Shown: positions 4,693 to 17,340 of the stretch, in pieces | Position numbering within the stretch: the stretch's first letter is position 1 | How the letters are laid out: every line of letters begins with the position of its first letter | DNA from: Deltaproteobacteria bacterium | Lineage (GTDB): Bacteria > Myxococcota > JACRCW01 | Direction of reading: 5' to 3' | DNA: 64,000 nucleotides | NCBI GenBank assembly: GCA_016218805.1 | Contig: JACRCW010000080.1 | Location: 62,001 to 126,000, forward strand | Translations under genes and position numbers: made by a program | Notes under the pieces: model-generated | Told to the model about the DNA's origin: nothing | What the model saw: only the letters and a program-made list of their open reading frames with translations | Database searches by the model: none

Positions 4693-5112
4693 ATGATCTC
4701 CACGGTGGAAAAGGTGCTGTTCCTCAAGGGCGTGGACCTGTTCTCGGCCATCCCGGGAGAGGACCTGTCCCAGATTGCCCAGATTGCGGATGAAGTGGAG
4801 ATGGACTCCGGCGAGACCATCTTCAAGGAGGGAGACCTTGGGGATTCGCTCTACCTCATCGTCTCCGGCAAGGTGCGCATCCACCGCGGGGACAAGGAGA
4901 TTGCGGTGCTGGGGGAAAAGCAGGTGTTCGGCGAGATGGCGCTGTTGGACAGCGAACCGCGCTCCGCCTCCGTCACCGCCACCACGGACGTCAGCCTGCT
5001 GAAGATCACCCAGGAGGACTTTGCGGACATCCTGGCTGAGAAGGGCGAGATTGCGCAGGGTATCATCAAGGTGCTCACGCGCCGGCTGCGCGGGCAGCTG
5101 ACGCGCAAGTGA
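4693..5112 (+). CDS. Stand-alone cyclic nucleotide-binding domain protein
   Basis: IFKEGDLGDSLYLIVSGKV and phosphate-binding cassette FGEMALLDSEPRSASV. No HTH follows. Confidence 0.92.
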   Translation: MISTVEKVLFLKGVDLFSAIPGEDLSQIAQIADEVEMDSGETIFKEGDLGDSLYLIVSGKVRIHRGDKEIAVLGEKQVFGEMALLDSEPRSASVTATTDVSLLKITQEDFADILAEKGEIAQGIIKVLTRRLRGQLTRK

Positions 5113-5123
5113 GGAGGACCGCC

Positions 5124-5453
5124 ATGGGTCTTTGGGAGCAAGCCACCGCCGCGGCCAGGGAGGCGCGCGCCGACCACGACCAGCTGCGCGCGCGTTGGGA
5201 GGAGGTTGCCCGCCGCCTGTTTGGCGCAGCACCGCGCCCGGCGGGAGAGACCGCGCCCACGCTCACCGTGGACCATGACGGCCACGCCCGCCCGGACGCG
5301 CAGCCCCACGCGCTGCGCATCCTGGGGCAGTCGCTGTTGCTCGCCGCCTCGTCACTGCTGGCCGCCGGGATGGCTTGGCTGGCCGCGTTCTTCCTGGGCC
5401 TCTACCTGTTCTTCCAGCGCCTGTTTGGCCTGCGCGTCCACGCCCCGGCCTGA
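5124..5453 (+). CDS. Small hypothetical membrane protein
   Basis: RBS GAGGAGG before the ATG at 5124; long C-terminal hydrophobic segment. Confidence 0.65.
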   Translation: MGLWEQATAAAREARADHDQLRARWEEVARRLFGAAPRPAGETAPTLTVDHDGHARPDAQPHALRILGQSLLLAASSLLAAGMAWLAAFFLGLYLFFQRLFGLRVHAPA

Positions 5454-5470: not shown

Positions 5471-5504
5471 ACAAAACGTTGAGGGCCCCGTCACCGGGGC
5501 CCTC
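5471..5504 (-). terminator. Intrinsic terminator-like hairpin (may also act bidirectionally)
   Basis: Perfect 10-bp stem GAGGGCCCCG/CGGGGCCCTC with a GUGA (GNRA) loop on the minus strand, followed by AACGUUUUGU. Confidence 0.75.
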
Positions 5505-5602
5505 GCGTCTCATTCCATCTCAACCGCGCCATTCCATTCCAAGCGACCGATCACCCAAACCAACATTCCATCCCATGAAAGGCCACCCGGAGGCGGCAAC
5601 GG
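5471..5602 (-). ncRNA. Predicted sigma-54-dependent small RNA (~130 nt) with repeated GGAAUG motifs
   Basis: Lies between a sigma-54 box (5613-5629, minus strand) and a terminator hairpin. 5' hairpin GCCGCC-UCCG-GGUGGC (5582-5597). Four GGAAUG copies (plus-strand CATTCC at 5511, 5530, 5535, 5564). Ends are approximate. Confidence 0.65.
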
Positions 5603-5612
5603 GATTCACTTG

Positions 5613-5629
5613 AGCAACGGCCGCGCCAG
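5613..5629 (-). promoter_or_regulatory. Sigma-54 (-24/-12) promoter
   Basis: Minus strand CTGGCGC-GGCCG-TTGCT matches TGGCAC-N5-TTGCW with exact GG-N10-GC spacing. Confidence 0.75.
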
Positions 5630-5656
5630 GGTGGAACCCGCGCCCGGCCAGCGCGC

Positions 5657-5683
5657 AAAAAAACAAATCATGTCAAACTATTA
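5657..5683. promoter_or_regulatory. IHF-like binding site
   Basis: TGTCAAACTATTA (5671-5683) has one mismatch to WATCAANNNNTTR and is preceded by an A-tract (5657-5667). It sits between the sigma-54 box and the upstream palindromes. Confidence 0.55.
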
Positions 5684-5735
5684 TGAACTCCACGCGGCCC
5701 CGGCGGCCCAGCCGACCCAACCGTGGAACGGCGCC

Positions 5736-5755
5736 CAGACCTGACAGGTCTGTCA
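5736..5755. promoter_or_regulatory. Overlapping palindromes, candidate enhancer-binding-protein site
   Basis: CAGACCT-gac-AGGTCTG (5736-5752) overlaps TGACAG-gt-CTGTCA (5742-5755), about 135-155 nt upstream of the predicted sigma-54 start. Confidence 0.45.
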
Positions 5756-5905
5756 TGCCAGGTCCCATGAGCGTCACTGCGCGGCCCCCTCAGACAGGGC
5801 GGCCTGAACACGGGAATTCGGCGACGGGGCTCCCTCAAAGCCATGATCCACGGGGCCAATTCGCCGCGTCTGGACGCGGCGATTTGGGAGCGTCCGTTTT
5901 TTCCA

Positions 5906-5934
5906 TTGACAGTCCGGATCCGGTCCGTTAGTTG
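5906..5934 (+). promoter_or_regulatory. Sigma-70-type promoter of the Fic-like gene
   Basis: TTGACA-N17-TAGTTG. Confidence 0.5.
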
Positions 5935-6069
5935 CGGCCACCAATTCTAAAACCGTAATGGCCCCGCACGGTTGGACCCAAGATTCAAAGCGGAGCCCCC
6001 CTGTCAGTTGGCCCAGTCGGACGCAGGCAGTTTGCCCGGCGGTGGGATTCCATCCCCTTGGAGGTTGAC

Positions 6070-6882
6070 ATGGCTGTGCAGGATTTTGATCTCAAGTCTC
6101 GCTACCTGGACGTGGACGACCGGCTGGTTGAGCTCAAGACGCTCGTGGAGGAGGCGAACTTTGCCCAGGCGGACTTCCGGGAAAAGTTTGACATGTCATG
6201 GATTTACCATGACTGCGGCCTGGAAGGTATTGTGCTGTCCTACCACGAGATCAAGGCCGCCATTGACCGCAAGGTGGCCTCTGACAACCACTTGCTGCCC
6301 ACCTACACGCTCATCAAGAACCTCAAGGGCGCCATGGACTACGTGCGGGACCAGGCCTCCCGCAAGACCTCCCGGGTCAGCGTCCAGATGATGCAGGACG
6401 TGCACGCCATCCTGGTGAAGGGCTTTGAGAAGTACGAGCCGGGCGCGTACCGCAAGGACATCCCCATCCACCGCAACTACTTCCACGAGATCTCACCGCC
6501 CCACAAGGTGGCCGCGCGCATTGAGAAGCTGATGGAGACCGTGCAGACGGCTGACTTCCGCTCGTGGCATCCCATCAAGCAGGCCGCTGCGTTCCACCAT
6601 GAGTTCCTGGGCGCGTTCCCGTTCACGGACCACTCGGGCCAGGTGGGCCGGTTGCTCATGAACTTCTTCCTGCTGCGCGGGGACTACCTGCCCGCCGTGA
6701 TCCACGCGGTGGACCGCCAGCGCTATTACGAGAGCCTGCGCGGCACCAACAGCCTGGCCCTGCGCGAACACCTGGTGGACGCCATGGAGAACGCGCTGGA
6801 GAGCGCCATCCAGTACCACCGTGACGCCCTCAAGACCGCTGAGCTGATGCGCCGGCAGTCCGGTTACGACGCCACCAAGTGA
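6070..6882 (+). CDS. Fic-domain protein with degenerate active site
   Basis: Fic fold motifs WIYHDCGLEG, PGAYRK and HPIKQAAAFHHEF. The signature reads FPFTDHSGQVGRLLMN instead of HPFxDGNGRxxR. RBS GGAGG before the ATG. Confidence 0.88.
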   Translation: MAVQDFDLKSRYLDVDDRLVELKTLVEEANFAQADFREKFDMSWIYHDCGLEGIVLSYHEIKAAIDRKVASDNHLLPTYTLIKNLKGAMDYVRDQASRKTSRVSVQMMQDVHAILVKGFEKYEPGAYRKDIPIHRNYFHEISPPHKVAARIEKLMETVQTADFRSWHPIKQAAAFHHEFLGAFPFTDHSGQVGRLLMNFFLLRGDYLPAVIHAVDRQRYYESLRGTNSLALREHLVDAMENALESAIQYHRDALKTAELMRRQSGYDATK

Positions 6883-8713: not shown

Positions 8714-13593
<4,880 letters not shown>

Positions 13594-13662: not shown

Positions 13663-14727
13663 ATGACCATCGACTTCCTCGACCAAGCCGCGGCCGCGCT
13701 CCGGGGGAAACGCGTCCTTGTCCGCTCCGACCTGGACGTGCCCACCGAGGCCGGCCGGGTCACCGACGACCACAAGATCCGCGACGCGCTCCCGACGCTG
13801 GAACTGCTGCTGCAGGCCGGGGCGCGTGTGCTGGTGGCCAGCCACCGGGGGCGCACGCGGCGGCCGGGGCCGGAGGATTCGCTGGAGGCGCCGGGAGAGA
13901 CGCTGGCGGAACTGCTGGGCCAGGAGGTGCGCTTCATTGATGAATGCGTGGGTGACGGCGTGAAGATGCTGGCCGGCGAGCTGCAGGACGGTCAGCTGCT
14001 GTTGCTGGAGAATGTGTGCTTCCGCTCCGAAGAAGAACGGGACGACGACACGTTTGCCCGCGCCCTGGCCACGGGGGTGGACGCGTACGTCAACGACGCG
14101 CCGGCGCTGTTGTCCCGCGCGCACGCGTCCATCCACGCGGTCACACGGCACGTGCCGCGGCGCTACGCCGGGCAGCTGGTGCGGTTTGAGCTGGATGCGG
14201 CGCACGCGCTCACCGGCGCGCCGGAGGGCACCGCGGCGCTGCTGCTGGGCGGTGACCGGCTGGCCGGCCGCGAGGGCGTGCTGGCGACGCTGCTGGCGCG
14301 TGCGCGCGTGCTGGTGGTGGGCGGCGGCGTGGGTGAGACGTTCCGCCACGCGGCGGGCATGGCGTGTGACGAGGCCAAGGTGGAGACGGCACGCGTGGCG
14401 GCGGTGCAGCAGGTGCTGGCCACCGCGCGGGACCGCGGCGTGCGCGTGGTGTTCCACGGTGACGACGTGGAGCGGACCACGCTGGAGGACGTGCGCGCGC
14501 TGCTGTGGAGCGGTTCACTGGGGACGCATGACGCGCGGCTGGCGCTGGCGGTGGCGGAGGCCACGCGGCGCGGCACGTTCTCCGTGCTGGCGGGGGATGA
14601 CACGGTGGCGGAGTTGGGCCGCGCGCACGCGCTGGGCGGCTTCCGGCACGTCAGCCGCGCGGGGACCGCGTTCCTGGACCTGGTGGAGGGCCGGGACGTT
14701 CCCGGGCTGCAGGCACTGCACCGCTGA
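13663..14727 (+). CDS. Degenerate phosphoglycerate kinase paralog (probable pseudoenzyme)
   Basis: PGK-like order of motifs, but altered: [42 protein letters not shown]. 354 aa with an intact frame. Confidence 0.85.
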
Positions 14728-17237: not shown

Positions 17238-17340
17238 CCAGACTTGGCAGACTGTAAGCGGTGCGACGCTGCCTCGCGGATGGAATGGCTCCACGCCGTT
17301 CCCGTTCCCATCCTCAGCAATGACCAGGAACGGGTCCGGG

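Follow-up and report, generated by a model that had tools for sequence, protein, structure and literature searches.

Decoy RNAs of the CsrB, RsmY and RsmZ type carry several GGA repeats at variable spacing and end in an intrinsic terminator, and CsrA sites share the consensus core ANGGA. In Pseudomonas, CrcZ and CrcY depend on RpoN and an activator and antagonise RNA-binding proteins, with CrcZ acting on Hfq/Crc, according to the excerpted text of PMC5113210. The LhrC sRNAs of Listeria monocytogenes, which are encoded in five gene copies and driven by LisRK, combine redundant short, CU-rich sites in one RNA and bind their targets independently of Hfq (PMC4132741, in excerpt). Within the Myxococcota, Pxr of Myxococcus xanthus (RF01812) has been described as a clade-restricted RNA, 108 nt long, that is preceded by an enhancer region and a predicted sigma-54 promoter (PMC5684412 and PMC5568312, in excerpt). 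Our literature searches returned no sigma-54 sRNA of myxobacteria other than Pxr; the RNA described here would be a second, unrelated candidate.

We located this predicted noncoding RNA in the window, by which we mean the whole 64,000-nucleotide stretch of DNA analysed here. Among relatives that bear a name, the nearest is a metagenome-assembled genome of the Myxococcota. Like Pxr, as far as the excerpted sources describe the latter, it is a clade-restricted sRNA of the Myxococcota, of similar size and with a sigma-54-type promoter. The RF01812 covariance model finds no match in the genome that contains the window (G000; 6.43 Mb, 92% complete) or in a genome from the same family but a different genus (G001; 96% complete), whereas it matches 3/3 genomes of family f11, whose Pxr copies contain neither TGGAAT nor ATTCCA. 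No pxrR-like gene (pxrR/pxrK) adjoins the window sRNA, which instead neighbours a small ORF, a cNMP-binding gene and fic or ilvE. Given the missing RF01812 match and the different neighbours, we rejected its identification as Pxr. The redundant short sites are shared with LhrC, which in the excerpted account also provides a precedent for action without Hfq; the window sRNA differs in its G/A-rich motif, its single copy per genome and a pairing that is so far predicted. Its sigma-54 promoter and upstream activator site, recognised by sequence conservation, recall CrcZ, whereas its motif is another one, Hfq is found in 0/41 genomes and Rfam holds no relevant match. GGA-containing repeats, variable spacing and an intrinsic terminator make it resemble CsrB, RsmY and RsmZ; it is set apart from these by the Rfam result and by the failure to find CsrA in G000/G001, and predicted folds, which differ between homologues, place none of the GGA repeats in loops. 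In six genomes of family f11, genus g48 (L092-L097), we further noticed a conserved sigma-54-like promoter with a strong hairpin and a U-run before a gene start, a possible attenuator.

Anatomy and conservation of the small RNA locus

The predicted RNA comprises ∼129 nt (5474..5602, minus strand) between a promoter and an oriented terminator, and has homologues in G001 and in two close metagenome loci found by Fic protein search (L042 and L043). Its 5' end would lie ∼12 nt past the -12 element, and the predicted fold has a z of ∼-3.8. The -24/-12 promoter, TGGC-N7-TTGC (5614..5628, minus strand), is of the sigma-54 type and is kept in L042 and L043; in G001 the contig ends, its sRNA copy is partial and the promoter region is not assembled. 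We found rpoN in both G000 and G001. A palindrome, TGACA-N4-TGTCA (5742..5755), is located ∼113 nt upstream of the promoter and may represent the site of an enhancer-binding protein. It occupies the same position in L042, and related half-sites are present in L043 and G001 (∼105-115 nt upstream of the promoter). The RNA is convergent with a small ORF whose C-terminal half is hydrophobic (5124..5453, plus strand) and which adjoins the element, and thereby marks the locus, in all three relatives (L042, L043 and G001). The gene for a stand-alone cNMP-binding protein (4693..5112, plus strand) is syntenic in L042 and G001. This anatomy can be read directly, whereas transcription and the activator are what we infer.

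CATTCCA starts at positions 5511, 5530, 5535 and 5564, which places four copies of UGGAAUG in the RNA. Copy 1 (5564..5570, minus strand) is part of the 10-mer GGGAUGGAAU and has an opening cost of 3.4 kcal/mol. Copies 2 and 3 overlap (5530..5541, minus strand; a 20-nt stretch here is identical in G001), and copy 4 forms the 9-mer GAUGGAAUG (5511..5519, minus strand) just 5' of the terminator hairpin (5481..5504, minus strand; U-tract 5473-5476). This 9-mer is invariant in 4/4 sequences and its first 8 nt are predicted to open at 0.1 kcal/mol, with the predicted accessibility of the 3' seed copy varying with the assumed RNA end (0.83 versus 0.03). The original prediction had correctly noted a second copy of the seed, ATTCCATC at 5512-5519, but overlooked two of the four in total. 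In the window, ATTCCATC occurs four times against 0.41 expected, two of these occurrences being the RNA's own repeats. G000 as a whole contains seven clusters of the motif, and a promoter and terminator are found at the window cluster only. Elsewhere in the window, positions 17273-17288 match 14 nt of the seed context of L043 and G001; this stretch is intergenic, between the end of a plus-strand gene and a minus-strand ORF that appears PIN-like by eye.

Across the four sequences there are 12 copies of UGGAAUG (four in G000, three in L042, two in L043 and three in G001 before its contig ends), all of them in one orientation. The spacers between them diverge, and their spacing, from 5 to ∼75 nt, is not conserved. 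In the terminator stems, 96.9% of cells are paired and 4/8 pairs have changed on both sides (5/500 shuffles), a covariation that lends modest support, coming from four related sequences of which one is partial. The terminator U-tract is on the sRNA strand in 4/4 sequences. AUG-started short frames in the RNA, read by eye, are not common to the homologues, and thus the sRNA contains no conserved small ORF.

Three wider searches (401, 101 and 401 genomes) returned no convincing homologue outside the family. A promoter-plus-motif pattern was matched in 104/401 genomes, far above its reversed control, and among 45 loci inspected more than one TGGAATG is present only in the window. We rejected the others as sRNA homologues, as they have a single TGGAATG and several are plainly mRNA starts in which the ATG of the motif is the start codon. 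A two-copy motif pattern was matched in 15/401 genomes, and TGGC-N7-TTGC within 150 nt upstream was seen in the window only, out of 16 loci. A model of the 3' module, for which 56 candidates were scored in each of 101 genomes, gave strong scores only in its two training genomes; 12 weaker matches were inspected and discarded, being mostly terminators and none with a promoter. The sRNA is present in one copy per genome and was found only in a single family, whose members are uncultured, myxobacteria-like bacteria. Taken together, the conserved locus, the repeats and a terminator with compensatory changes make the sRNA look real, and the conservation of promoter, upstream palindrome, repeats and terminator supports its original assignment to the sigma-54 type.

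The match in the fic leader and the order of sRNA, ilvE and fic

Divergent from the sRNA lies a Fic-like gene whose ATG is at 6070 and whose Shine-Dalgarno sequence (SD), GGAGG (6060..6064, plus strand), is shared by 4/4 close loci. The original prediction envisaged a linked module, in which the sRNA seed pairs with the fic leader and switches its translation. We could confirm the underlying 10-mer, ATTCCATCCC, at 5565-5574 and again at 6047-6056, 3 nt 5' of the fic SD. A sigma-70-like promoter (5906..5934, plus strand; TTGACA 5906-5911, 17 nt, TAGTTG 5929-5934), which was read by eye and is below the threshold of our promoter scan, is conserved in L042 and similar in G001, and would place the seed site inside the fic transcript. 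The 10-mer of the fic leader occurs 13 times in the 6.43-Mb genome of G000. Perfect 10-nt complements that contain the seed are found in 10/4945 of its 128-nt leaders, and any 10-nt complement to the RNA in 169/4945. A match in the neighbouring gene is unusual, at 0.2-3.4% a priori, yet a post-hoc search can yield one; this one, which duplex energy places in the top 1.6% of leaders and the exact seed 10-mer in the top 0.2%, is hard to call plain chance.

The site is not found in the relatives. The motif is absent before the fic orthologues of all three that keep the sRNA, an absence that had been named beforehand as refuting the sRNA-fic module, and the seed complement is missing from the fic leaders of 29/29 other genomes examined, G001 included (29 of 35 genomes with a Fic match; fic starts estimated from tblastn). 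Paired with the fic leader of its own genome, the seed forms a duplex that is equalled or surpassed by 1.6% of G000 leaders in the case of G000 itself, and by 59, 83 and 97% in the case of L042, L043 and G001, respectively. The intergenic region of L042 aligns end to end with the window, and both promoters, the palindrome and the SD are kept. The leader of the window can form a 5-bp hairpin, GGGAU-UCC-AUCCC (6044..6056, plus strand), whose loop and 3' arm constitute the 10-mer complement at 6047-6056. Where the window DNA reads GGGAT-TCC-ATCCC, L042 reads GGGGC-CGC-GCCCC, so the hairpin has been maintained by two compensatory changes, whereas the seed complement is lost. The leaders of L043 and G001 have a hairpin just 5' of or over the SD, written in other letters (no fold is significant compared with shuffles). 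On the simplest reading, the leader would be selected for a small hairpin and the letters used in G000 happen to match the seed. Because the perfect match is present in only one of four genomes, fic is probably not the real target of the sRNA. The case urges caution, as a perfect 10-nt match beside a neighbour's Shine-Dalgarno sequence can vanish in every relative.

The 10-bp sRNA-fic duplex amounts to -15.3 kcal/mol, or ∼-7 kcal/mol after opening both RNAs (∼5.3 kcal/mol on the fic leader and 3.4 on the sRNA). The two alternative leader folds put forward in the original prediction are possible, but neither is dominant (probabilities are 0.18-0.30 for UUCCA/UGGAG and 0.14-0.34 for GGGAU/AUCCC). 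Once the sRNA is bound, opening the fic SD costs 1.0 instead of 2.3 kcal/mol in the full leader, but more than before in a truncated leader. For the region from -12 to +13, the cost of opening shifts by -0.7 or +0.4 kcal/mol when the leader is complete and by -2.6 kcal/mol when it is truncated. An anti-anti-SD switch, one of the two outcomes that had been considered, is thus energetically small and not robust across leader lengths. A duplex at -23 to -14, beside the SD, would more likely obstruct the 30S subunit and repress fic than activate it. Genome-wide target ranking did not bring fic to the fore (161/4949 genes, and 64/377 among genes whose best site uses the seed), with the qualification that gene calls and ranking were made with our own scripts (5001 genes, some with wrong starts; ungapped helices plus accessibility) and not with Prodigal and IntaRNA.

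In L043, a gene for an aminotransferase, which from its sequence we take to be ilvE-like, sits between the sRNA and fic. The fic contig of G001 opens with elements that L043 also has upstream, and ilvE and fic come next; we therefore consider that its gene order probably matches that of L043 across the assembly gap. ilvE is found ≤1.5 kb upstream of fic in 7/29 loci from other genomes and ∼1.5 kb upstream in two more loci fetched with wider flanks, and the genomes with this arrangement span six families besides that of G001. We did not find ilvE beside fic in the two other genomes of the class, and the G000 assembly (92% complete) contains no ilvE orthologue, only a 27% paralogue. Since ilvE is directly upstream of fic in relatives and intervenes in L043, the divergent adjacency of sRNA and fic is probably derived; with ilvE missing from the G000 assembly, fic most likely became the neighbour of the sRNA when ilvE left the locus. 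Two smaller features were seen in this region. A partial seed complement is located just 5' of the ilvE SD in L043 (L043:452-465), forms a duplex matched by 27% of leaders and is absent in G001. An element, GGCTACTTT, lies ∼25 nt beyond the palindrome in all three relatives (L042:2630-2650, L043:385-395 and L001:105-117) and is missing in the window; it is kept even in L042, which has no ilvE there.

The Fic-like protein

The fic gene (6070..6882, plus strand) encodes a FICD-like pseudo-Fic of 270 amino acids (Pfam Fic, E 3e-15) with Phe in place of the catalytic His. It aligns with FICD over residues 8-232 (E 2e-18) and, like FICD/HYPE-type proteins, keeps the inhibitory-helix Glu. Unlike these, it does not have HPFxDGNGR with the catalytic His but reads FPFTDHSGQVGR, the DGNGR stretch being replaced. 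A catalytically altered Fic protein had been predicted, and this is borne out by its homologues: the position of the catalytic His is taken by Phe in 85 and Tyr in 35 of 120, and by His in none, whereas the inhibitory Glu is kept in 117/120 and the motif Arg in 120/120. From known Fic chemistry, replacement of the catalytic His and of the DGNGR stretch renders canonical AMP transfer unlikely. Several residues are invariant (H47, G53, R128, R194 and RQ..Y216-219), which suggests a retained, non-canonical function. The AlphaFold model is poor (pLDDT 54.9), and a search of the Atlas returned Fic clusters only.

The protein has one match in 36/41 Myxococcota genomes, often just behind ilvE, and shares 88% sequence identity with its counterpart in L042 and 86% with those in L043 and G001. 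This pseudo-enzyme is conserved and much older than the sRNA. Our literature searches found nothing on this protein among the matches listed, which does not show absence of publication. A His-less FICD-like protein that is present once in most Myxococcota genomes searched, including the Pxr-carrying family, represents a separate lead.

Mode of action and candidate targets

The reading we tentatively prefer, and rate not far short of an even chance, is that of a family-restricted sigma-54 sRNA whose redundant UGGAAUG seeds pair with targets in trans, fic not being a conserved one. An enhancer-binding protein at the upstream palindrome would switch on the sigma-54-type promoter, and the RNA would end at its intrinsic terminator and have the repeated heptamer, in 2-4 copies, as its working unit. 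Any of the redundant seeds could then base-pair, without Hfq, with C/U-rich sites on mRNAs encoded elsewhere, and the 10-nt match in fic would be a by-product of the letters with which this lineage spells a small hairpin in the leader. As in RNAs that base-pair in trans, we find a conserved seed, a promoter and terminator of its own and no conserved ORF; pairing mode and targets are inferred. Against base pairing, no conserved target was found among the sites compared, and a protein decoy would account just as well for copies that vary in number and spacing.

In genome-wide tests, leaders show no enrichment of seed complements beyond composition; one enrichment test returned p 0.027 uncorrected, but ranks 11/46 and 20/164 against permuted words. 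In G001 we compared 294 ATTCCA sites, including 98/100 CATTCCAT and all 82 GCCATTCCA[ACG] sites, of which 161 have a G000 homologue nearby and 11 fall on or ahead of the start of such a homologue. None of these 11 sites is found again upstream of the G000 gene; one has a wobble match at +44. Being limited to two genomes of different genera, these tests have little power, those of enrichment included. The nuoA leader of G000 (C107:5153-5509; L377, L384) is built much like that of fic, with a 13-nt complement to the tandem seed copies, containing one G-U, just 5' of the SD. This site is absent at that place in 29/29 other nuoA loci, G001 included, and a similar site just 5' of the SD of a second G000 gene (C143) is absent in G001. 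A gene on the sRNA contig, napA-like from its sequence (G000:C28:48850-51144; L108) and ∼17-19 kb from the sRNA locus, carries, across its SD, 17 nt that are complementary to the sRNA's 5' hairpin; we rejected it as a target because that hairpin is not conserved.

The repeats could instead be read by a protein. Each UGGAAUG would bind one copy of an RNA-binding repressor other than CsrA or Hfq, sigma-54 induction would release the mRNAs of the titrated repressor and the fic match would be incidental; we regard such a decoy as possible and as the main rival, if the weaker candidate. A short invariant motif in 2-4 copies, spaced by 5 to ∼75 nt of unconserved sequence, argues for it, and 8/12 copies read AUGGA and so match ANGGA, the core found in CsrA sites. 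A decoy would also agree with the target comparison, in which the 11 G001 sites, nuoA and one more gene yielded no conserved pairing site, and control by sigma-54 and an activator corresponds to the layout of CrcZ as excerpted (PMC5113210). However, CsrA (PF02599) was not found in G000/G001 and was found in 11/41 genomes (controls positive 3/14), and Hfq was found in 0/41 (controls positive 5/14); these results count against both decoy types known so far. Only G000 yielded an RRM protein, the sense motif is without clear enrichment in leaders (rank 25/120; 3 versus 2.7 expected over start codons) and the UGGAAUG copies are not in predicted hairpin loops. That the sRNA titrates, under sigma-54 control, an undescribed kind of repressor reading UGGAAUG seems to us rather doubtful; if true, it would add a third protein-titration system to Csr and Crc/Hfq. 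A literature search for repeated UGGAAUG returned no bacterial sRNA by title among the matches listed. The failure to find CsrA in G000/G001 and Hfq in any of 41 genomes leads us to favour base pairing over the decoy. As the usual RNA chaperones were not found in this lineage, the sRNA could serve to study how small RNAs act in their place.

Other readings concern fic itself or the DNA. It is unlikely, in our estimate, that the fic leader became a real base-pairing target in this lineage alone, after the loss of ilvE, in which case repression would be likelier than activation. The perfect 10-bp duplex of -15.3 kcal/mol, the mere 10/4945 leaders with such a site, the similar sites just 5' of the SD of nuoA and one other G000 gene, and the partial complement in the adjacent ilvE leader of L043 would all agree with it. 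Yet fic ranks only 161/4949 (64/377 among seed-using best sites), two extra G's are found only in copy 1 of G000, a hairpin explains the site, the L043 duplex is matched by 27% of leaders, and the opening costs of the SD and of -12 to +13 change little in the full leader. That sRNA and fic form a conserved, linked module, with translation of the pseudo-Fic switched by the sRNA as first proposed, is barely credible: the sRNA is near fic in G000, L042 and L043 and the match is perfect in G000, but 0/3 sRNA-bearing relatives have the motif, their duplexes are at or below background, and the adjacency looks derived, with ilvE intervening in L043 and probably in G001. Moreover, fic is phylum-wide whereas the sRNA was found in one family only. 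We consider it very unlikely that the repeats are transcription-factor sites in the DNA and that any RNA made there is incidental. Such sites may exist in distant genomes: in L265 (G045:C25:202548-202579), a TGGAATG pair directly follows an enhancer-protein-like gene (type assigned by eye) and precedes a sigma-54-like promoter, where it probably serves as a binding site on the DNA, and in L276 a pair is found before a LysR-like start (by eye). The window copies, in contrast, have a promoter on one side and an oriented, covarying terminator on the other, and they share one orientation but no conserved spacing.

Outside the sRNA locus, the window contains GAPDH-like and phosphoglycerate-kinase-like sequences in one open frame (10483-13593, called as 11293-13593), an apparent fusion. 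Behind it, at 13663-14727, comes another kinase-like ORF, all three types being assigned by eye.
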